Source of the DNA: a bacterium
GTDB lineage: Bacteria > SAR324 > NAC60-12
Reading direction: 5' to 3'
Assembly (NCBI GenBank): GCA_965233585.1
Contig: CBDDTI010000051.1
Location: 1-24,191, forward strand
Length of the DNA stretch: 24,191 bases
Numbering within the stretch: the first letter of the stretch is position 1; each line of letters begins with the position of its first letter. Positions 10,866 to 24,191 of this stretch are shown in pieces. The translations under genes and the position numbers were made by a program. The notes beneath the pieces are model-generated. The model saw only the letters and a list, made by a program, of their open reading frames with translations, was not told where the DNA came from and made no database searches.

Positions 10866-11626
10866 AAAAATAAGATAAGCTTCGGTGGTATCCCCAACAG
10901 CCGCAGCTTTTTTTTTGCATGTTTTTTCTGAAGCGTGCTGCAACCTCAGCCGGTTTCCCTCAACTAAATGGCCGCGGATCCTGCTGAACCTGACCTGGCT
11001 CTGCACCAAAGCCTCCCACACCTTCTCCGGAACCTTCTCCGGAACCCTGTTGAACCTGACTTGGCGCTGCACCAAAGACTCCCGGAACCTTTTCCGGAAC
11101 CTTCTCCGGAACTTCTCCGGAGCCCTATTGAACCTAACCTGGCGAACCCTGTTGAACCTGACCTCTGCACCAAAGCCTCCCAGACCTTCTCCGGAAACCT
11201 GTTGAACTTGACAAAGCTTCCCAGACCTTCTCCGGAACCTTCTCCGGAAACCTGTTGAAACTGACCTGGCTCTGCGCCAAAGCCTCCCAGACCTTCAACG
11301 GAACCTTCTCCGGAACCTTCTCCGGAACCCTGTTGAATTTGACCTGGCTCTGCACCAAGCCTCCCCGAGCTTCTCCGGAACCTTCTCCGGAATCTGCTGA
11401 ACCTGACCTGGCTCTGCACCAAAGCCTCCCAGACCTTCTCCTGAACTTTCTACGGAACCTTCTCCAGAAACCTGTTGGACGTGACCTGGCTCTGCACCAA
11501 AGCCTGCCAGACCTTCTCCGGAACCTTCTCCGGAACCTCGTTGAACCTGACCTGGCGCCTGCACCAGTGCACACCGGAGCTTTTCTGGGCTGAAGACCCC
11601 ATTAGCTTACGCTGTTGGGGAAAAAT
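10866..11626 (-). mobile_element. Interspersed non-autonomous element with asymmetric TIRs (HINE-like)
   Basis: TCCCCAACAGC (10891-10901) is inverted to GCTGTTGGGGA (11611-11621). Terminal hairpin CCCCATTAGCTTACGCTGTTGGGG. AAAAAT is present at both boundaries (10866-10871, 11621-11626). Confidence 0.6.
10980..11560. repeat. ~66-bp tandem repeat with variable 12-bp subunit CCTTCTCCGGAA
   Basis: TGAACCTGACCTGGCTCTGCACCAAAGCCTCCC-type unit recurs (10985, 11051, 11129 ...). Confidence 0.95.
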
Positions 11627-11753
11627 GCCAACGATGGAAATCTAGGAGGCCTTGGGCTATGCCGGATACGCCCCAAGATTTTTTGGTTCAGAAGGCATTT
11701 ATGGAGAAGTGGATGTGGCTGTGCAGTTGATGTGCCATTGACGTGCTTGGAGG

Positions 11754-11819
11754 TGATGATCGTGGGCAACCAGACATCTGAAGATGCGCGGCAATTGGCA
11801 CGAGAACTGGAGGAGAAGA
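11754..11819 (+). CDS. Candidate short exon of an unidentified multi-exon gene
   Basis: GAG|GTGATG acceptor-like context and frame VMIVGNQTSEDARQLARELEEK. Similar short frames at ~10753 (EMFASLEEVSREKICR) and ~11647 (EALGYAGYAPR). Boundaries uncertain. Confidence 0.25.
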
Positions 11820-12474
11820 GTGCTTGCTCCCATGTGGATGCGCCGGATGCAAACACTCTGCAGACATGCTGATTTGATAGGCTCAGAGGCAGTCCAAAGG
11901 TGGTACGGGCGGACTGTTTCACATGCTGATGGCTTGCGCCACGAGTGCCAGCGCCATCTTGGAATTCCATGGGCCGATCTCTTCTGTGGCCAGCAATTTT
12001 GCATCAATCTTCAAATATGTTCAATATAATATCGAATTTGTTTGCACTGAGGAAGGCCGTACGGGCCTTTTGTTATCTTTTGTTGACCATACTGCTTTGC
12101 ATGGCTAATCCAATATAGTCCCATGTGTTTTGTTTTTGGGTAGATCCAGGAGCGTGGCCGAGAACGGTGTTGGTGTGCACGCCTTGTAGCTTACTCTGGT
12201 GGTTAGCAGAGAGAGCAGGAAGTAGAAACACGGGCAGCCGCTTTCATGAATTGGTTAAAACTAATGAACTAATGCACATCATCAAATGCTGCGTTTGTCA
12301 CAAGAATTCTTTGCTTGCTGTGTATTGAGGTCGGGTTCATGACATGCCTGAAACATGTCGCAGCCGTCTCGGCTGAGCGACATGGGATAAAGATGGATAA
12401 AGCATTTTGAGCCCACGTGGAGAACCATTGGGAGGTGAAGCCGGTGAAGCATGGTGAGGCCACGGGATTGTGGC

Positions 12475-13329
12475 ATGGCCTTCGCACTTTCCATCACCGC
12501 ACTTGCGCTTGCAGCACATCCAGCACTTGCAGCACTTGCAGCACCGCAAGAATGCGACGAGGATTTGTGCCATATGTCCCATCTGCAATTGCAGGTCAGT
12601 GGCATTCCAAATGCGACGAATTGGGCTGCGCTTGGCGGCGTGTGCCTTGCCGAGCTGCCTGAAGAGTACCTGACAAAGCCTGTCAATGATGTGCTGCAAA
12701 AGCACGAATGGAAGGAACAGGACGGATGGTGCGTGTTTGGTGCCGTGGACAAATGCATCAGCGGCTGCGCGGTGTGCCGCAAGCTGCGAGACATGCAGCC
12801 TTACTTTGAAGTTTATCAGCAGGAAACCCCGAACCGGGTTTTCAAGAACGCAACGCCCAAAACGCTCCGCTTTCCCAATGGCTCTCTGCTGACCCTTCGT
12901 GAGTATGACTCCCCGATGCTGGACATTTACTGTTACATGAAGGGCTATTACGACATGGACCGCGAAAAGTTGGTAAATGATTTTGACTATCTTGAGAAGA
13001 TCTCGGAAGCACAATGTGCAAGTGCAGAATGGCAGAATTCTGAGTTGTCACTGCAGGACGTCCATGACCTATATCTGCGTGAAACGGAGATTTTGGCACT
13101 CCTAATGGCTGAGAAGGGCATTTCTGATGTGAACCAGTCGTTGGTGGACACTTTAGAAGCCCACTTCGTGGTGAAGTGTTTATTGGGCCGCGGCCGTGGG
13201 GCCATTTGCGACGTGCCGGAGTGTTCCTGGCGGACTTGTGTCACGCGCGGGTCGCGTTTCGACGGAACGAAGGAGGTGACGGAGACCATTGTGAAGTACA
13301 CCTCGTTGAACGAATGCCCCGAGCTCTGA
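12475..13329 (+). CDS. Intronless secreted cysteine-rich protein of unknown function (284 aa)
   Basis: Non-repetitive ORF with GGCATGGCC start context. Hydrophobic Ala/Leu signal peptide MAFALSITALALAAHPALAALAA. 14 Cys and 4 N-glycosylation sequons (NAT x2, NGS, NQS). An in-frame upstream ATG at 12451 is an alternative start. Confidence 0.85.
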   Translation: MAFALSITALALAAHPALAALAAPQECDEDLCHMSHLQLQVSGIPNATNWAALGGVCLAELPEEYLTKPVNDVLQKHEWKEQDGWCVFGAVDKCISGCAVCRKLRDMQPYFEVYQQETPNRVFKNATPKTLRFPNGSLLTLREYDSPMLDIYCYMKGYYDMDREKLVNDFDYLEKISEAQCASAEWQNSELSLQDVHDLYLRETEILALLMAEKGISDVNQSLVDTLEAHFVVKCLLGRGRGAICDVPECSWRTCVTRGSRFDGTKEVTETIVKYTSLNECPEL

Positions 13330-14651
13330 AGGTGAAAGAGCTGTGAAAGTGATCTGTTTCAGAGATCGAAACATCGAAATTCGTCTCACAACGAGATTTC
13401 GGATAGATCAAAATCCTGCTTCGCCTCTACTACACGTCTCTGTTACCCAAAGAAATCATGGAAAAGTTGCCGCACGCTTTTGCAAGTCTGTCATCGATGA
13501 TATTAGAATTAGATGTCATATGAGAAAGAGAGAAAGAAACTCTGGTTTTGGGTAAACATTCAGTTTCGGGAGCTCATGAGCCCACACCGCCATGTCAGAA
13601 GACCTCGAAAGTCGTTCATTTGGTTGTCAGTCAAAGAGTCCTTATTAGGCTATGGTTTTGGCACGCCGCAATGTCAGAAGACCCCGAACTTGGTTGAATG
13701 GCTTCAGAGTGTAAGTTTTATTGTGCCTCTGAAGTCAGCCATGAAATTTTCGCGCCCGACCAGAAGTGACCAAAAGTCAAATTTGATTGGGTCCTCGCAT
13801 GGTTTCATGGTGCGAAGATATGTGTTTGTCGATTTTGATTTCGCATGTTGCTGGCCATTTCGCAGCCGCGCTGGTCGAAATTTCGGAGGCTGCTGTAGTC
13901 ACTGTTGGACCGAGGCGCTTGGTTGAAATTGTTGTTCGTTCACATTTTGGTTGCATTGGTTGCATTCAGCTGGCAATAGAATTTTGCTGAAATGGGATGT
14001 TAGCGGCAAACACGATAGTGGATTAAACACGATTGCTCATGACGCTGGCTTCTGAGGGACAGCTTCGTCCTCTGTTCCTGCTCCCCTCCCAACATGTTTT
14101 TCAATGCGACGCCTGCTGAAATTTGATAGCATTTTGTTTCCTGATCTTGTGCGGCCAAAACAAGCTCGGGTTGTTGAAGAATTGTTTCTGCCGGCGGTTT
14201 GGCAAAATGAGGGTTCCCCGAAATGGTTGGGGCCAATCTTCACAAATGACCAAACGGGGAGCCATTTTTTGAGTATGCTTTGTTCGTTGCACTGTTTTGG
14301 GTTGAATTTATGGTGGTAAAGTTGGCATCAATATAGTTGAATCAAGAAAATGGTGGTCAATCTTTTTTGGCTGCAGATTCCACAAATTCGTTCCACGTCA
14401 CTTTACAGTGGAATGCCAACGAAAGTGGGTTTCCGCATCATTTTTTGGCACCGTTTGGTCTGAATGATGTTTGCCTAGCACCACCTCCAGCTCACAAAAA
14501 ACCCTGAAGCTGCAACTTCGGTGGCGCTCTTTGATGGCGGTTCGAAGCACATATTGGCACCAAAACCAGTCAAAAATTGGCAGATGCTGTGTGGATTGAC
14601 GAAAACGTGCGCAAACTGACGTAGTGGGCTCCCACATGTCACTTGTTGTTA

Positions 14652-14690
14652 GGCATACTGGGCATACTGTGCATACTGGGCATACTGGCA
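14652..14690. repeat. 9-bp microrepeat (GCATACTGK)n
   Basis: GGCATACTGGGCATACTGTGCATACTGGGCATACTGGCA. Confidence 0.85.
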
Positions 14691-14821
14691 TAGCAAATCC
14701 CCAAGAAGACATGTATCTACTTTTGTCCTATAGTGTTTTTTGTTGAGGTAACTACATCTGAATGCCTTCCTTTTCCGACGTGGCTACGCGGCTACACGAT
14801 TTGTTTTACTATGATTTTGTT

Positions 14822-15255
14822 GAAGCACCTTTGGGGAGTAGCTTTAGAACGCAACTTTGGGAAGCAATTTTCGGCAGCAACTTTGGGGAGCAGCTTTCCG
14901 CAGCTTTGGGGCAACAGCTTTGGAGAACAGCTTTGGGCACAACTTTCGGGAGCAGCGCAGCGCAGGGGAACAGCTTTGGGGAGCACGTATTTACAAGGAA
15001 TTTCGGGGAGTAATTTTCAGTAGCAATTTTGGCTAATTTTGGGAGTAATTGGGGACTAGCTTTGGGATTGTAGAGAGCTGCTCTGGGGCAGCTTCGGGGA
15101 CCAGCTTTGGAAGCAGATTTCGGGAAGAATTTTGGAGAGCAATTTTGGAATAATTGTGGGCCTTATTATGCGCGAAGTAGGTTTCGATGACGTAACTTTG
15201 GGAAACCGCTTTGGGAATGAGCTTTTGGTAATAATTTTGGGGAGTATTTGGTAGT
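14822..15255. repeat. Degenerate ~13-bp satellite (GCAGCTTTGGGGA)n within an interspersed element
   Basis: GAGCAGCTTTGG-type units, progressively converted to GAGTAATTTTGG toward the right. Confidence 0.85.
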
Positions 15256-15544
15256 ACGTAAAGAATCGCGGATTTCCGATTGGTATTCTTCATTACCTAT
15301 ATTTCTGCTCTTTTATTTGCCGGCAAGGCTGGGATTAGTTTTCTCCTGAGTTTGTTGGCTCGTTTCAAAATTAGACAATTTATTTTTTGATGGATTGAAT
15401 TATTGTAGCTTGGATTTACTAATTATAATATATTTTCACGAAAGGTAGCTCCAGAGGGGCTACCTTGAGTTTTACTTTACAAAGTAAAGGGGAGGGCGGC
15501 CAGCCCCGTTACCTTATTATTCAGGAGATTGCTAGTCATTTTAG

Positions 15545-16175
15545 TACCCCCCCACCCCTCCACGCCTCCCACGCACCCTAAGAGCAGATTCAAAACATTG
15601 TAATTTACAGTATTTTTGGTCTTTTCGGATCAAGAAACCACATTTTGTTACATGGCGAAACCTCCGTAAATACCAGTGTTTTTGCTAGGTGCTGGCCAAA
15701 AAACACTGTAAATACCGTGCTTTTTACTACCAGAGGCAAAAAACATCGTAAATATCGTGGTTTTGGGCTTCCGACCCGCCAAAAACATTGGTATTTACGA
15801 TGTTTTTTGCTCCGCGAGTTGCAAAAACACGCGAAAACACCACCTATTTGACGATTCTCGGCCACTGCGGAACCGAGAAAAAATGCTGCAGGGGTAACAC
15901 CAACACCACCAACAACAACAACAGCAACAACAACAGCAAGAACAACATCATTATCAACAACAACACAACCACAACCAACAACAAACAACAACACGCAACA
16001 ACTCACAACAACACACAACAACACACAACAACACACAACAACACACAACAACACAACAACACACAACAACACACAACAACCAGCGAGTTGCAAAAACACG
16101 CGAAAACAACACATATTTGACGATTCTCGGCCACTACGGAACCGAGAAAAAACGCTGCAGGGGTAACACCAACAC
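15545..16175. repeat. Interspersed repeat with GTAAATAC...TTTTTG submotifs and a duplicated ~90-bp block
   Basis: GCGAGTTGCAAAAACACGCGAAAACA...GGGGTAACACCAACAC at ~15814-15906 and ~16083-16175. C-run tract at the left end. Confidence 0.75.
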
Positions 16176-17560
16176 AAACACCAACACCAACACCAACGCC
16201 GCCACCACCACCACCAACAACAACACGCAACACGCTACACCACGCAACACCACGCAACACCACGCAACACCACGCAACACAACGCAACACCACGCAACAC
16301 CACGCAACACGCAACACGCACACGCACAACGCGCGCAACACACAGCAACACACAGCAATACACAGCAACACACAGCAACACACAGGAAAACAACAACACA
16401 CAACAACAACACACAACAACAACACACAACAACACACAACAACACACAACAACACACAACAACACACAACAACACACAACAACACACAACAACACACAAC
16501 AACACACAACAACACACAACAACACACAACAACACACAACAACACACCACAACACACAACAACACACCACAACACACAACAACACACATCAACACACAAC
16601 AACACACAACAACACACCACAACACACCACCACAACACACCACAACAACACACCACAACAACACACCACAACAACACACCACAACAACACACCACAACAA
16701 CACACAACAACAACACACAACAACAACAACCACAACAACCACAACAACCACAACAACCACAACAACCACAACAACCACAACAACCACAACAACAACCACA
16801 ACAACAACAACCACAACAACCACAACAACCACAACAACAACAACCACAACAACCACAACAACCACAACAACAACCACAACAACCACAACAACCACAACAA
16901 CCACAACAACAACAACAACCACAACAACAACCACAACAACCACAACAACCACAACAACCACAACCACAACAACAACAACACAACACAGAACACAGAACAC
17001 ACAAGACACATTACACCACACACCACACACAACACACAACAGACAACACACAACACACAACAAACAACAGACAACACACAACACACAACACACAACAGGC
17101 AACATACAACACACATTACATAACAACAACACGTAACATACAACACATCACACAACGCACAACACACAACATAGAACACAACACAATTTACAACACACCA
17201 CAACAACCACAACAACAACAACCACAAAAACAACACCAACAATCACAACAACAATCACAATAACAACAGCAACAACAACAACAATAACAATAACAACAAC
17301 AACAACGACGACGACCACGACCACGACAACAACAACGACGCAACGACAACGACAACAACAATAACACCAAGAACACCAACACCAACATTACGACCAACAA
17401 CACCAACACCACCAACAAACCCCATTCACACCAGCAACACTAATAATACTATTAACACCACCAACAACAATACCAGCATTAACAACTCCAACAACAGCAA
17501 TACTACTAGCACCACCAACATTACCAGCACCACAACCACCGCCAACCCCAACGACACCAC
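15900..17560. repeat. CAA/ACA-rich low-complexity microsatellite block
   Basis: (CAA)n, (ACACAACA)n, (CACCACGCAA)n and (ACAACC)n. Almost no G/T on the plus strand over long stretches. Confidence 0.97.
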
Positions 17561-17579
17561 CGAAGCCTGTCCATCACTT

Positions 17580-20500
17580 TTACCAGACTCTATTTTATAT
17601 TTTTAGAAAGAAAATGGACGCATCGCTTTTATTAGATTTTACTGCATATTTTTTTTTTTGCCCTCTCTCCTTTTTTTTTCTTCGGTTTTTTTTATATACC
17701 TACCTTTCGTATTCCCCCTCTTAAATTTTCTTTTTTATGGATTTGGCTATTAAGGCTCGGCTTGACCTCCGAGGTTTTTTTTCGGACTTGAAATTTTAAT
17801 TTTGAATATATGATGTTATTTTTTAATGATTATGATTCGTTAAAATTTCGGGAATGTTGATTTATAAATTAATATAATTATATGGAATTAAATATATAAT
17901 ATTATAAGATATTTTAAATGATATATTGATATAGTTTTTGGATTTATATTTTTTTATATTTTTATTTATAAATATTTTATTATATTAATTCGCTAAAAAT
18001 TTGGCAATTGAAATTTATTATTATTGACCATTCCTAAAGGATATAGATTATAATTTATTAATGTAATTTAAAAATAATATTTTGAATTATTTTTTTTAAA
18101 TATATATATTTTAAATATATTGATTTTTATTTTTATCGTAATTTCTCGTTCTTGGAAATATAGGCCGATTTTAATATAAAATATTATAATTATTTGATAT
18201 TTTAAATTGAATATTTTTATATTTTTATTTTATTGATTTTTTTGTAAATTATAAATTAATTAAATATAATATTTGATAAGAATATTTAATTTATTTTAAA
18301 TATATTATATTTAAAAAAAAATTATGAATCGATATGTATTTATTTATTATGAAATTATTTTATTTTGATATTAAGAAATTGAAAATATATTGAAAATTTG
18401 ATACGATATAATAAAATGATATTGAAGATTAATATTTTATTTTTTGGGCTAATATTTTCAAAATTGAAAGATTTTTAAAAAATATTTTTGGAAAATTCGA
18501 AAATATAAATTTTCTAGAAATATGTTGTTTTTGTTTTCCGGGATGTTGGGTAAAATTTAATTTTGCTAAATTGATATATATAAAATATGAAATTGAAAGA
18601 ATTTAAAAAAATAAATTATATATTTATTTGGATATTTTTATATTTTTAGGAATTTGAAAAATTTGAATTTTATTTTATATAATAAATTGGAAATGGTGTG
18701 TTTAATTATTAATTCTTAAAATATTTTTTTTTTCTTTCATATTGATTGAAAATATAAATTAAAAATTGGATTGATTTATTATTTATTAAATTTATAATAT
18801 GATGAAATTTACTTTTAATAATAAAAATATTTTATTTATTGCAATTTTTTTTTTTATTTATATATATTTTTTTTAATTTAAGAAAAAATAATAATATCTA
18901 TCGAATTGGTATTAATTTAATTTATAATTAATAAAATTATATATGTTTTATTTTTTTTCAAAGAAAATATATTTCAATATATTCAGTGTTTTTTCTTTCA
19001 TTGAATTTAAATATATATATATAGATAAAATATTTCATAGAATAAATATTTATTGTATTTATTATGTTTATTTTAATTTATATTTTAATAAATATAATAT
19101 TTTTTTTTGATTTAAGATAATCTATAGAAATAATGAATTTAAAAGATTTGAAAAAAATAATCAAATTAAGATAAGATATTTAAAATATAATTTTTGAAAG
19201 AAAATTTGAATTAAATGATATATTTTGGAAATATTTTTTAGATATTAAAATGATATTAATATTTTGTCAAATTCGAAAAATAATGGAATATGAATATTAT
19301 TTTATATTTATTCGAATATATATTTTTCAAAATATTAAATAAATATTTTTTAATATGATTATTTGATAAAGAAATAAATCAAAATAAATAAATTCATATA
19401 TATTGAATATTTATTGATTTAGAAAATTAATTTTTAATATATATATATATATATTTCAAAAAATCATATGGAAATAAAGATTTGGAATTGGAATTAAATA
19501 TGAATAATGAAAAAAGATTATAATATATGATTTCTTTTTGAAATATTCAAATATATATATATTTATATATAGATATTTAATTCAATTTTGAATTTTATCT
19601 TTAAATAAAATATATTCAAATATTTATCTTTCAGGAATATAATTTGAAATTTCCAGAAATTATTAATTTGAATATTTATATTTTTTAAGATTATAAATAA
19701 ATATTGATTTTTTATATTATATGAAAATTGAATTTAATATTTTTTGAAAGAAAATCAAATTTTGATTTTTTAATATTGATATTTTCAATATAGATAATAT
19801 TTTGAATCGAATATATTTATTGAATGAGATATTTATAGATTTTTTTTTAATTTGAAGGAAAATAATGAATTATTATTTAATTAAAAAGAATTTTGGGAAG
19901 GATCTATATTTTAGAGATGAAAAATGAATAATATGGATGAAATTAGCGAAAAATATATAAATATGAAAATTGATTTTTTAAAAAATAAATAAATTATTTT
20001 AAATATATTTCTTGAAAATAATTAAAAAGATAGAAATATATAATTATTTTATTTATTTATTTTTGAGAATAATATAAAAAATGAAATCAAAGATAGAAAT
20101 TAATGATAAAAATATTTATAATAAGAATCGAAGGATTTCATTGATATTTGTTTAAAAATTTAATTGAAAATATGCAGGTTAATAAATATATATCGACCAA
20201 AAAAAATAATATAATTAAATTAAATATATTAAGATATTATTTATTTCTTAAATTATTTATTTAGATATAGATATAGATATTTTATATTTTTTGCTATATG
20301 ATTTGAATCTTGAAAAATTCAATTATTTAAAATTAATGGAATTCGGTATTTTTCTAGGAAAAGAATATTAAAAAAATTAGGTATTTCAGATAAAATTATA
20401 TAATTTAGAATTATTAATATTTATTTAGGAAGATGTTTTTTTCGAAAAATAAAGGAATAATAATAAGGAAATAGAGGTATTCAAATTAATAATATATATA

Positions 20501-22830
20501 TATAAATTAATTCATGAAAAATTTGTAATTTATATTATTGAATAACTAAATAGGATGCATATATGAGGGAAATATCGATATTATATATATTTCAATTTAG
20601 GAGAAAAAAAATGGATTTTTTCTTGAAAATATATTTTATCAGGAATAAAATTTGAATTTATTGAAATTTCAAAAAAAAATATTTTTTGAATATTCCTTGA
20701 AATTTGAAGAATAAATTCATTTTTTTTTGATATTTGATTTTTTTTCTTGGAAATACGGACTATTTCCATTTTTTTCATTATTTATTGAAATAAGTTGGAA
20801 AAATATTCGTAATTGATTTTGGGAAAAATGAAATTAGGAATTCAATTATTTTACCGAATCAGGAAATATATATATATATAATGTTATTGTTGTTTTCTTT
20901 TTTTCATTTTATTTGAATATTTTTCTTTGGCTTTTATATTTTTATTTTGTGATTTTTCTGGTTTTGTGATTTCTGAAAATTGATGGAAATATAAATAGAT
21001 ATTGTTTGATATTTAAAATTTTATTTTTTTTTTGATATTTTTGATATGATAATAAATAAAATATTATCGAAATTTAATTCGGTTTTTTAATATGTGAAAT
21101 AAAAAATTTGAAAATAAGAATTTCATAATGAAAAAAAAAATATAATTTATTTTTTTTAATATTTTTCAGATATAATATTCACCTTTTTTTTTTAAATTGA
21201 AATATTAAATTTCAAAATAAATAAATTGAAATTAATCAAATTTAGAATTGGAATTTTATAATTGAGAAAAAATATATATTTAATTTATATTTTTCAATTT
21301 TGATATTTTTCCAAAAATAATATTTGATATTTTTTAAAATAGAATATGGAGATAAAAATAGAAGATATTTGAAAAATGATGAGAATGTCAAATGAATCGA
21401 AAAGAAAAATGAAATATTGAATTTAATTTAGTTGTTTTTTTAATCACAAAGATTTTTTTTATATTATTTGATATTAATTGAATATATCAATTTATTTGAT
21501 ATTGTTTGATCTTTATCTTTGCTTAAGGATTCAAATTTCTTCGGTTTTTAATTAATAATTAATAGATGAAATTAAAAAATTAAGATATAATTTCTAAATT
21601 TGAATCTTGAAATTGAATTTTTTTTGATTAATAATTCTTTTTTCAAATGATATTCAGAAAATAAATATCAAATTAATTTAATCATAATTATTTTATTCCT
21701 TGATTATTTTCTTATGGCGTTTGCTTGCGAATGTATGGTTGAGAATATGCCTTCGGTTCTAAGTAAATAATTGATTCTCCTGAATTTATTTTTGATCCTG
21801 CTAGGGACCCGGCAACAAAGGCACTGGCAGCCGTATGGGCTTCATCGCACCTCATTATTTAAGGCTTGACTGTTCTGAGATTAGATATTGAAATAAGTTT
21901 TGATGTATTTACCGATTATATTGGATTGGAAATTGTCTGTAAATTCTTCAATATTATTTTGAGTTGTTTTATATTGGAAATTGGAAAATTGAAACCTGAT
22001 TAGGGAGAATATCTTTCAAATTATTGAATTAATAATCGCTAAAATTATTGTATTTCATTTAGAAATATCGAGAAATCGATTCTATTTAGATCAAAATATC
22101 GAGAAAAAATTTTTAAAAGATATAGAATAGATTTTTTTTTAACTTAAATATGAATAAATATGATTTTTATATTTTAATTTTCTAATATTTGAAATGAATT
22201 GGTTATTTTGTGGAAAAATAGATAGATAGATTTATTTCAAAATAACATGTTTTTATATATATATATATATATATTGATTTTTAGTATTTATTAAATTGTC
22301 GGTTTTATTATGTTCTTATTATTTAAGATTATAGAATATAAACTTTAAATCTATTTTAAGATATTTTGATAATTATTATATTAAATATTCAATTAAATTT
22401 AAATATTTTGAAAGATTATATTGCATTGGAAATTTGGAATATATTTTTATATTTTATTTTGTTTTTTTTATATATTGGAAATTGGGAAATTTGAAATTTG
22501 ATTGCGAAGAATGTCTTTCAATTTATTGAATTCATTATCGCTATTTTTTAATAATTATATATAATTCGATTCTATTTAGATCAAAATGTCGAAATCAAAA
22601 TTTTAAAAAATCTAGGATTGGAAAATGTGAATTTTAAAATTTAAATATTAATAAAAAATATTTATAATATTGAAAATTTATTTCTTTAAATTTAACATAT
22701 TTTTTCTTCGTTTCAGTTATGAATTGACTAATTTCTGGAAAAATAGGTATATTTCCCCCCCAAAAAAATATGAATTTAAATATATAATTTTGATTCTTTA
22801 ATATTTATTAATTTGTCGGTCCTATTGTCA
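17580..22830. other. Extremely AT-rich domain of decayed repeats
   Basis: Hand count at 19141-19620: 52 G+C in 480 nt (~11% GC). Contains internal diverged duplicates. No credible ORFs. Confidence 0.95.
21720..21843 (+). pseudogene. Decayed coding-like segment, paralog of 22846-22969
   Basis: Gapless alignment at offset 1126. Stop codons in one copy correspond to sense codons in the other. Confidence 0.5.
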
Positions 22831-22987
22831 ATTGTTTTGGTTGCTTTTGCTTGCTAATATATGGACAAGATTATGCCGGATATTACAAGTGGGTGGTTGG
22901 CTATCTTGCATTTACTTTTGGTCCTGCTAGAGTCCCAGCACCAAAGGCATTGGCAGCCCTGTGAGCTTCGCGCGCACTGGGACTCAG

Positions 22988-23185
22988 GCGGGACCAATCG
23001 AGACGGAACTCGCAGTTGGTCGCTGGGTGAGAAGCCGGATGATCCGTGGAGACTTGTTCAGACCTCTTCCCCACAGCGCCTTTGTAGAAGTCACTCTCAC
23101 GCCTTTGCGCCTTTGGGAGAGTGACTTCGCAGCCTGGGGTCGAGAGCGCCCTGCGTGGCCGTCTGGGCTCGTTGAAGCGGTGAAG
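22988..23185 (+). CDS. Candidate isolated internal exon (66 aa), product unknown
   Basis: CTCAG|GCG acceptor and AAG|GTGCAT donor bound 198 nt, phase 0-0, GC-rich. Encodes AGPIETELAVGRWVRSRMIRGDLFRPLPHSAFVEVTLTPLRLWESDFAAWGRERPAWPSGLVEAVK. Confidence 0.6.
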
Positions 23186-23279
23186 GTGCATAAGTCCCAG
23201 GTCGAGTGGGCTTGTTCTGTCTTTGCAGATAGTCCGCCCCCACTCTCTGCAATCCGGCATTTATATTCTCATCCATGCT

Positions 23280-24095
<816 letters not shown>

Positions 24096-24191
24096 ATTAA
24101 ATGGAATTGATTTTTTTGAAATTAATTTAAAAAAATGTTTTTTCTAAAACTAATTGCTTTATCTATACACAGTTTTTGCCATATTTTTCCG

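Follow-up and report, generated by a model that had tools for sequence, protein, structure and literature searches.

Small regional centromeres such as those of S. pombe and Candida tropicalis have AT-rich central cores between inverted repeats, and foldback transposons carry long low-complexity inverted arms. Fungal RIP of the Neurospora type (RID/DIM-2), which goes with a RID/Masc1-type cytosine methyltransferase, introduces almost only C>T/G>A changes with a 3' preference (CpA), increases TpA/ApT and affects every long duplicate; the index thresholds are approximately 0.89 for TpA/ApT and 1.03 for (CpA+TpG)/(ApC+GpT). For AID, WRC sites are hot and SYC sites are cold. Dinoflagellate chromosomes do without ordinary nucleosomal chromatin, and their domain boundaries have so far been known only as averaged “GC dips”. 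Such dips were reported at convergent domain boundaries of S. microadriaticum (PMC8110479) and in 17 of 25 putative boundaries of C. goreaui, in regions longer than 5 kb (PMC9412976), and in B. minutum the boundaries are enriched in 5hmU and of low accessibility (PMC11071213). As far as these sources are drawn on here, the published dips are averages of about 5–10 percentage points, and 12%-GC blocks, a repeated block family or a dinucleotide signature are not described in the sections used.

The window, i.e. the whole stretch of 24,191 nucleotides analyzed here, contains an AT-rich non-coding block at positions 17686 to 22862. It resembles the GC dips at the boundaries of convergent gene arrays (dinoTADs) as a kilobase-scale, non-coding fall in GC between genes of Symbiodiniaceae, with the gene on the left pointing at the block. 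It differs from them in that this one gene (left side, + strand) is the only gene identified near the block; the contig ends at position 24191, 1.3 kb right of the block, and a position at a convergent boundary is putative. Regional centromeres and foldback transposons likewise have a several-kilobase AT-rich centre between inverted arms, but the arms of the block are low-complexity CAA/TTG arrays only, with 70–77% complementarity. In contrast to regional centromeres, a second contig (C13) has several blocks inside 10 kb, which is also more than a single boundary would need, and evidence of a kinetochore or a transposase was not found.

The explanation we prefer, on which we are evenly divided between acceptance and doubt, is that the block is a genuine AT-rich spacer, non-coding and heritable, the long-term product of A/T-biased substitution restricted to a domain, in a family near its compositional equilibrium. 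Blocks of this kind may be what the GC dips correspond to at the level of sequence. If the dips consist of such blocks, the boundaries gain a concrete identity, namely a repeated spacer of approximately 12% GC, free of ApC/GpT, together with a conserved edge element. One could then search for blocks of this type, compare their positions with Hi-C, 5hmU and accessibility data, and quantify a mutation regime specific to the domain. A more far-reaching proposal, which we regard as unlikely, is that Symbiodiniaceae have a process of cytosine loss confined to particular chromatin domains, either enzymatic or coupled to the hydroxylation of thymine and its repair. With a strong preference for C after a purine, it would have built a genome-wide family of blocks of about 12% GC marking gene-array boundaries. 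This would amount to a means, peculiar to dinoflagellates, of encoding chromosome architecture in the sequence.

Origin of the contig and reality of the block

We identify the contig as nuclear DNA of Symbiodiniaceae that was wrongly binned with a SAR324 assembly from coral, because an open reading frame at 12451 to 13329 (+ strand, 292 aa), transcribed towards the AT block, has homologues in Symbiodiniaceae. Its product matches proteins of Durusdinium trenchii (70% identity, 89% coverage) and Cladocopium goreaui (79% identity, 64% coverage); a Pfam family was not found for it. These matches confirm the dinoflagellate origin supposed in the original prediction, and judged by sequence similarity the source of the block is probably a Cladocopium/Durusdinium-like coral symbiont. 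The median GC of 0.46, compared to 0.36–0.42 in most low-coding contigs, also fits this origin. The dinoflagellate genome share in the assembly is a few hundred kb only. Altogether approximately 7 Mb of DNA from coral and symbiont reside inside this “high-quality” bacterial bin.

The position of the contig in a mis-binned assembly could be taken as a hint that the block is an assembly or base-calling artefact, or AT-rich contaminating DNA of foreign origin fused to flanks of the dinoflagellate. We find this barely credible. An independent metagenome contig (L038) spans both the AT part, with 840 of 936 aligned bases identical (approximately 90%), and the boundary element to its right (133 of 139, approximately 96%), and paralogous blocks with conserved TpC/GpA positions occur on other contigs. 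Exact 31-mers of the stretch are also present in runs of several studies: each of seven sequencing runs contains half or more of the words sampled from 14200 to 24191, and parts of this segment are found in 21 runs from nine studies. The AT block is real, and L038 provides independent support for it.

Composition of the block

The block (approximately 12–15% GC; A 2032, T 2349, G 541, C 255) is the longest among the 137 AT-rich domains of the assembly. Across most of its 5.2 kb the GC content is 0.10–0.18, a kilobase-scale local minimum in a contig with 0.46 around it. Both edges are sharp, with GC falling from 0.45 to 0.12 between 17401 and 17801, and rising from 0.17 to 0.46 between 22601 and 22801. 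There is no open reading frame of more than 66 codons in the block, no period of three in its G positions (177/165/173), and no Rfam or tRNA match.

Between 19141 and 19620 all 14 C are preceded by T (AC, CC and GC do not occur), and among the 38 G 32 are followed by A, five by G, one by T and none by C, exactly as in the hand count of the original prediction. The scarcity of ApC and GpT compared to TpC and GpA extends over the whole block, where AC (26 observed, observed/expected 0.26) and GT (82, 0.33) are under-represented three to four times, and TC (159, 1.37), GA (325, 1.53), CG (49, 1.84), CC (2.87) and GG (1.77) are over-represented. C follows A rather than T in a ratio of 26:159 (p=1.4e-20), and G precedes T rather than A in a ratio of 82:325 (p=1.4e-43, both binomial against the A:T ratio). 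In windows of 200 bp the pattern is present from 17801 to 22800 and weaker only in a GC-richer island at 21601 to 22000, and the first 15,000 positions of the contig are ordinary (AC 0.97, GT 0.86, TC 0.93, GA 1.05).

Two further claims of the original prediction hold, and a third holds in part. Ordinary CpG decay is not the cause; 17 of the 49 CpG lie in TCGA. The 5' base is the dominant context variable for C: with strands pooled, C/(C+T) in the block compared to positions 1 to 15000 is 0.057 versus 0.70 in AYA, 0.020 versus 0.45 in AYT, 0.289 versus 0.72 in TYA and 0.115 versus 0.40 in TYT, i.e. the standing composition is 0.02–0.06 after A and 0.12–0.29 after T. Strand symmetry applies to the dinucleotide bias and fails for base composition, G exceeding C on the + strand by approximately 2:1; the GC skew is +0.39 to +0.57 over 18001–21500 and 22001–22500, and lower where GC rises. 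The retention ratio TpC/ApC is 1.8–2.4 in windows below 20% GC of dinoflagellate-like contigs, compared to 1.0–1.3 in coral-like and 1.06 in bacterial contigs. The signature is better described as ApC/GpT avoidance than as TpC sparing.

Such a pattern could also arise if the block consisted of arrays, inherited or selected, of short words that are rich in A/T and carry G/C where T-tracts meet A-tracts (TTGAA/TTCAA, GGAAT-like), e.g. a degenerate satellite or sites of a structural DNA-binding protein; the rarity of ApC/GpT would then reflect their absence from the words. Among words with G, TTGA (103), GAAA (95), TGAA (85) and TTGAA (56) are indeed the most frequent, words of this type occur in the stretches conserved between paralogues, and both G and C tend to have T on their upstream and A on their downstream side. 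There is also an internal tandem duplication of approximately 450–500 bp at 21880 to 22826 (+ strand; copies 21880–22309 and 22380–22826, 74% identical over 137 nt in blastn), with self-alignment scores of 168/154/98/88/64 against a reversed-control maximum of 55. Outside this segment, however, self-similarity of the block does not exceed the control, G and C positions have no periodicity at lags 1–40 and no strong Fourier peak, and TRF reports short, weak arrays only. As in addition an unrelated GC-normal island inside the block drifts to A/T, we consider motif composition quite improbable as the explanation, even with a G>C skew that tracks the orientation of the repeat unit.

Related blocks and flanking elements

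The segment 19071 to 20864 (+ strand) is homologous to an AT block at C13:40921–42794, with a local score of 669 against 119 for the reversed control and 1257 of 2000 columns identical under neutral scoring. Its sub-segment 19136–19887 has more paralogues, in both orientations (C13:38087–38535, C13:43359–43675 on the minus strand, C13:44493–44696 and C51:18074–18378). Block paralogues with the same signature are found on contigs C13, C376, C666 and C23, and AT-richness is common to all five C13-type copies, bin by bin. The sign of the G>C skew flips at the inverted C13 copy, which suggests that the skew was inherited with an ancestral unit and does not depend on position alone.

On the left the block is flanked by a C+A-rich, low-complexity CAA/CAACAC array (15896 to 17561, + strand; TRF periods 3, 6, 10, 20, 30 and 60). 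Its GC skew is approximately −0.64 to −0.98 over 16001–17500 and −0.28 over 15501–16000, its AT skew +0.78 to +0.99 over 16001–17500, and homologues occur at C23:23767–25226 and C287:2982–4437. It is the inverted counterpart of a G+T-rich TTG array on the right (23276 to 23995, + strand; TRF periods 3, 7, 37, 44 and 89; GC skew +0.70, AT skew −0.81), with 70–77% inverted matches to 23539–23965. Adjoining the block on its right is a conserved, GC-normal boundary element (22835 to 23300, + strand), 90% identical to C13:47858–48321; element and TTG array together match C13:47858–49021 with 76% identity over 1178 nt. The core pattern of the element occurs in five metagenome contigs, in each with an AT-rich upstream side. 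It has no coding potential (differences 13/16/18 over codon positions, all frames interrupted) and no Rfam match at E<=1.

Inside the block the island at 21710 to 21949 (+ strand) is a degenerate copy of the start of this boundary element, partly decayed towards A/T. It is 73% identical to 22843–22969 over 127 nt (blastn) and scores 91/105 in purine/pyrimidine space, compared to a shuffled maximum of 50/52. Polarised against sites at which flank and C13 agree, 81 changes were counted at 221 sites; 54 of them are GC>AT, which substantiates the expected decay towards A/T inside the block, and 38 are GC>AT transitions, a plurality seen in no other comparison.

Substitution spectra and possible causes

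The original prediction had attributed the block to a repeat-targeted, TpC-sparing, RIP-like C>T genome defence. The likeness to fungal RIP lies in sharp-edged AT-rich blocks made from sequence repeated in the genome, with a net loss of C/G, and ApC is the least stable context. The block copies are nevertheless dominated by A<->T transversions and indels, with transitions/transversions of 154/257, 84/131, 41/55, 30/58 and 116/92 (0.5–1.3); this lack of a transition excess is the outcome that had been named as speaking against C>T hypermutation. The indices run opposite to RIP of the Neurospora type, as TpA/ApT is approximately 0.75 and (CpA+TpG)/(ApC+GpT) is (81+267)/(26+82) = 348/108 = 3.2, with no preference for CpA>TpA, and the context effect is on the 5' and not on the 3' side.

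Repeat targeting is contradicted by the unmutated neighbours of the block. A dispersed GC-normal repeat family at 6181 to 8030 (556 blastn HSPs on 27 contigs) is CA-rich and of low complexity at 7001–7800; its clean part, 6181–7000, has 21 non-overlapping copies on 14 contigs, 81–93% identical, with a consensus GC of 46% and 292 transitions to 229 transversions. Here GC>AT is 0.050 compared to 0.034 for AT>GC (implied equilibrium GC 41%), and C>T is 0.039 in ApC and 0.043 in TpC, i.e. there is no context effect. The boundary element, itself repeated, is 90–96% conserved and GC-normal directly at the block edge, so that a targeting of all long duplicates is not observed.

TpC sparing is not apparent in the polarised changes either: among block copies C>T was counted in 26/100 TpC, 13/35 ApC, 8/41 GpC and 4/40 CpC (ApC versus TpC p=0.28, not significant alone), and in the island in 7/24 TpC, 8/16 ApC, 9/39 GpC and 9/32 CpC (ApC versus the other contexts pooled, 25/95, p=0.08). 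The variability between pairs, 12/28 for ApC and 22/91 for TpC, gives p=0.09. The effect of context on recent changes is thus slight, and could not by its size produce the 4–6-fold context difference of the block. Protection of C in hmUpC is at odds with a base-resolution 5hmU map that, in the part of the report used here, has no sequence preference (PMC11071213). We judge a RIP-like defence very unlikely, and the tempting but unsupported claim of such a system in dinoflagellates has been removed.

A rather unlikely alternative, though one with several points in its favor, is an ancient or episodic burst of an ssDNA cytosine deaminase-like activity (AID-like, with a purine at −1 and YpC “cold”) on an ancestral element, the AT-rich product being copied and later blurred. 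Judged by the standing composition, the −1 base may decide which C survive, as in AID/APOBEC footprints, although the polarised recent changes give a weak effect: C after A is scarce and C after a pyrimidine is kept, in the core 19001–20000 almost every C has a pyrimidine before it and almost every G a purine after it, and CC and GG are over-represented along with TC and GA. The mostly GC>AT island changes and a strand-asymmetric G>C inherited with unit orientation would also fit. Unlike such footprints, the recent substitutions have no transition excess in any block-to-block comparison and no clear TpC/CpC cold spot, with TpC hit as frequently as GpC and CpC. Among the copies we found no C>T or G>A changes that are clustered and coordinated by strand, neither blastn nor transition-blind seeds revealed a GC-normal progenitor of the block, and GC-normal repeats are untouched. 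According to the portion of the literature consulted, only an expansion of DYW deaminases is reported in dinoflagellates, apparent AID/APOBEC-like genes were judged to be host contamination, and no enzyme of this type is established there (PMC5889660).

For the old AT-rich spacer family that we prefer, the mechanism would be as follows. The blocks are members of a dispersed family, bounded by inverted CAA/TTG low-complexity arrays and the conserved boundary element. Within the domain substitution is biased to A/T, with a per-site GC>AT rate 2.2–4 times that of AT>GC, compared to approximately 1.5 outside; this regime would have shaped the composition over the long term. Its least stable context would be C after A (G before T), so that surviving G/C would be found mostly in 5'-T_S_A-3'-like contexts. 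The cause may be regional: in boundary chromatin that is unusual, rich in 5hmU and hardly accessible, forces that restore GC may be missing and/or cytosine may be lost at a higher rate.

The signature would be mostly old, being common to the paralogues and to the copy in another metagenome. The C conserved in both C51 and C13 comprise 44 TpC, nine CpC and no ApC; ApC sites are 19 singletons and none shared, compared to 42 single and 44 shared TpC sites (Fisher 1.2e-5). The blocks would by now be close to compositional equilibrium. Polarity was assigned by parsimony on non-star trees and is blurred to that extent; with this reservation GC>AT versus AT>GC amounts to 68/216 versus 92/645 in C13-type singletons (implied equilibrium GC 31%), 12/21 versus 27/191 in a three-way comparison of the core (approximately 20%) and 54/119 versus 17/102 in the island (approximately 27%), i.e. 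approximately 20–31% inside blocks compared to 41% outside. The observed GC is below these values in the core (approximately 10% versus 20%) and in the C13-type copies (25% versus 31%), and AT>GC changes outnumber GC>AT changes (27 versus 12 and 92 versus 68, respectively). The low GC and this net flux, which would both also suit a deaminase burst, could represent a relaxation after a stronger past event. Between C51 and L038 the differences are symmetric, with 11/9 for C/T and 9/12 for G/A.

Structure and signature of the AT-rich block

The non-coding AT-rich block of the window (17686–22862, approximately 12–15% GC) has sharp edges at the resolution of 200-bp windows. It is flanked on the left by a 1.6 kb CAA/CAACAC-rich array and on the right by a GC-normal element (22835–23300) followed by a TTG-rich array. 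Left and right arrays are inverted counterparts, and the flanks of the block were found again on three other contigs (C23, C287 and C13). A segment of the block (19071–20864) has a homologue in an AT block of C13, with an alignment score of 669 (vs. 119 for the control), and a sub-segment of it has at least four additional paralogues in both orientations. The block further contains a tandem duplication (21880–22309 and 22380–22826) and an island (21710–21949), which repeats the start of the GC-normal element in decayed form.

Every copy of this boundary element, which is GC-normal and approximately 470 bp long (22835–23300; C13:47858–48321; L037–L041 on public-metagenome contigs), is located at the edge of an AT block. 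The element is conserved to 90–96% and the neighboring AT part to about 90% at most. An ORF, a codon-position pattern and an Rfam match are all absent from the element, which might be a boundary, promoter or terminator signal. Its sequence pattern found no match in the collection of genome contigs searched, and matched five contigs of one public metagenome, all five of which are AT-rich upstream of the element. One of these (L038) aligns to positions 21873–22968 of the window and is identical at 840 of 936 aligned AT-part positions and at 133 of 139 element positions, and its signature is like that of the window (AC 0.27, GT 0.49); the remaining four group with C13 at 85–92% identity. Seven sequencing runs each contained 50% or more of the words sampled from 14200–24191. 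Given the independent metagenome copies and the words in the sequencing runs, it is very unlikely that the block is an artefact.

The original prediction was built on a hand count of dinucleotides in 19141–19620, which our recount reproduced exactly. The bias is present in all 200-bp windows between 17801 and 22800 except at the island (21601–22000). Over 17686–22862 the observed/expected ratios are 0.26 for ApC, 0.33 for GpT, 1.37 for TpC, 1.53 for GpA and 1.84 for CpG (binomial p = 1e-20 and 1e-43 for the ApC and GpT deficits, respectively). The 5' neighbor is the context variable of greatest weight: C/(C+T) in the block is 0.02–0.06 after A vs. 0.12–0.29 after T, and in the remaining contig it is 0.40–0.72 whatever the 5' base. 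In low-GC windows the retention ratio of TpC to ApC is 1.8–2.4 for dinoflagellate-like contigs, a sample of a few hundred kb that is enriched by binning for contigs bearing AT blocks, and approximately 1 for coral-like and bacterial contigs. Block composition is strand-asymmetric (541 G vs. 255 C). According to an old nearest-neighbor report, hmU reportedly prefers TpA/TpC.

We rejected that the block is of coding or organellar origin, as several sets of stop codons yielded no long frames and period 3 was absent, and known RNA families and tRNAs had no match in the block. Since periodicity is lacking, a short-period satellite was likewise rejected, and a motif or satellite origin of the blocks loses weight. 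The 14 kb around the AT blocks of C13 (C13:36000–50000) look like a mosaic more than a single block: at least three AT-rich blocks lie within 10 kb with GC-normal stretches between them, and one of them has an inverted core unit, at which the sign of the GC skew flips.

Substitutions between block copies

The bias had been attributed to a RIP-like, repeat-targeted hypermutation from C to T that spares TpC. Pairwise counts, although taken from noisy alignments of 85–90% A/T sequence, gave 154 transitions and 257 transversions (146 of them A<->T) between the window and C13 under neutral scoring, and 84 and 131 in well-aligned columns. The comparison with L038 resulted in 41 transitions, 55 transversions and 46 gap columns in the AT part, and its C/T and G/A differences are symmetric.

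Polarization by parsimony rests on few, non-star copies. For the copies grouping with C13 (five copies, 4-of-5 consensus, 861 sites) there were 208 singletons, 116 transitions and 92 transversions, among them C>T at 26/79, G>A at 25/137, A>G at 36/313 and T>C at 29/332 sites. The core, in a three-way comparison, had 88 changes (30 transitions, 58 transversions) with GC>AT at 12/21 and AT>GC at 27/191 sites. The island was polarized against two intact copies with transition-tolerant scoring, the alignment being less sure in its second half, and showed 81 changes at 221 sites (20 G>A, 18 C>T, 10 G>T, 6 C>A, 17 AT>GC). By 5' base, C>T occurred at 13/35 ApC, 26/100 TpC, 8/41 GpC and 4/40 CpC in the C13-type copies, and at 8/16, 7/24, 9/39 and 9/32, respectively, in the island. 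Throughout, C is most labile after A (ApC), with contrasts that are non-significant when taken singly (p = 0.28, 0.09 and 0.08). The sole clear context result is that C's common to the window and C13 are never ApC (ApC: 0 shared, 19 single; TpC: 44 shared, 42 single; p = 1e-5). In a GC-normal control repeat (6181–7000, 21 copies) there were 292 transitions and 229 transversions without a context effect (0.039 for ApC vs. 0.043 for TpC). Genome-wide hypermutability of ApC was rejected: an apparent 2.5-fold effect in the 6181–8030 family is gone without its CA-rich low-complexity part.

Because of these polarized and pairwise counts, neither a transition excess between block copies nor a sparing of TpC, which is also hit by polarized C>T changes, can be maintained. 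Repeat-targeting does not hold either, since the copy of the element within the block drifted to A/T and its twin adjoining the edge did not; the bias therefore tracks the position in the domain and not repetitiveness. RIP proper fails for each feature tested.

The per-site ratio of GC>AT to AT>GC is approximately 2.2 in the C13-type AT parts, 2.7 in the island and 4 in the core, compared to approximately 1.5 in the GC-normal repeat, with implied equilibrium GC contents of about 31%, 27%, 20% and 41%, respectively. The main rival to our reading, a deaminase-type burst in the distant past that preferred a purine at −1, would better account for a GC content below equilibrium, as well as for how strong the 5' effect is and for the G>C skew that goes with orientation. 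Yet such a burst lacks a transition signature, a known enzyme in the literature consulted (PMC5889660), and a progenitor: a blastn search of the assembly with the window as query covered almost none of 18001–22500, and transition-blind purine/pyrimidine 28-mer seeds gave only small edge matches barely above the reversed control. Sixty SAR324-related genomes contained no homologues of the block, only weak AT-rich chance matches (E ≥ 5e-6).

We favor a domain-restricted, AT-ward regime acting over a long time, whose cause is inferred: the blocks would form a family of non-coding spacers under long-lasting, neighbor-dependent substitution toward A/T. AT-richness and signature are common to the paralogues and the copy from the other metagenome, and are therefore old. 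Such a regime could plausibly produce the "GC dips" at convergent gene-array boundaries of Symbiodiniaceae that are reported in three papers (PMC8110479, PMC9412976, PMC11071213). The openly accessible papers searched on RIP in dinoflagellates, 5hmU, TAD boundaries, AT-rich intergenic DNA and APOBEC described no such blocks or signature.

Origin of the contig

The assembly (G000; 12.0 Mb, 747 contigs, the window being all of contig C51) is a mixture of bacterial and eukaryotic DNA. Bacterial 16S genes are found on a few large contigs with a long-ORF coverage of 79–87%, and ORF coverage is low in 661 contigs (7.2 Mb). Most of the latter are stony-coral DNA, and a few hundred kb are from Symbiodiniaceae. 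Evidence for coral is a single-exon class-C GPCR with 89% identity to an Orbicella faveolata protein; ORFs of Ty3/gypsy, Penelope-like and BEL/Pao type were also found. Median GC is 0.44–0.47 in a small subset including C51 and 0.36–0.42 in the other low-ORF contigs. The ORF at 12451–13329 (+) shares 70% identity with a homologue of Durusdinium trenchii (coverage 89%) and 79% with one of Cladocopium goreaui (coverage 64%), and an ORF of C13 likewise matches C. goreaui. The dinoflagellate origin originally proposed is correct in that both ORFs match Symbiodiniaceae proteins. C51 is thus nuclear DNA from the Symbiodiniaceae symbiont of the coral. Dinoflagellate spliced-leader relics were absent from G000, where dinoflagellate DNA amounts to a few hundred kb only.

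The AT blocks lower the mean GC of C51 and related contigs to about 40%, which probably explains their mis-binning with a 40%-GC bacterium. G000 was rated 92% complete and 2% contaminated although approximately 7.2 Mb of it, in 661 contigs, are eukaryotic, a fraction that is invisible to marker-gene contamination scores.

We further report that the ORF at 12451–13329 (+) encodes 292 aa, is conserved in Durusdinium and Cladocopium and has no Pfam domain; one source names a homologue histone-lysine methyltransferase (EHMT1). On a eukaryotic contig of 40% GC, a 1179-aa ORF (L017, C316:7146–10682, −) combines a GREB1-type circularly permuted helicase segment, a TET-associated glycosyltransferase and ankyrin repeats, a domain mix that suggests a DNA base-modification enzyme. 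A coral-like contig carries a Penelope-like retroelement ORF with reverse transcriptase and GIY-YIG endonuclease (L020, C339:16440–19457, −). The window itself also contains a direct duplication of approximately 570 bp (212–779 and 1235–1802, 95% identity) and a tandem array at 3125–4035 with a 44-bp register shift, whose self-matches of 91–93% occur at offsets of 44, 88, 132 and so on.
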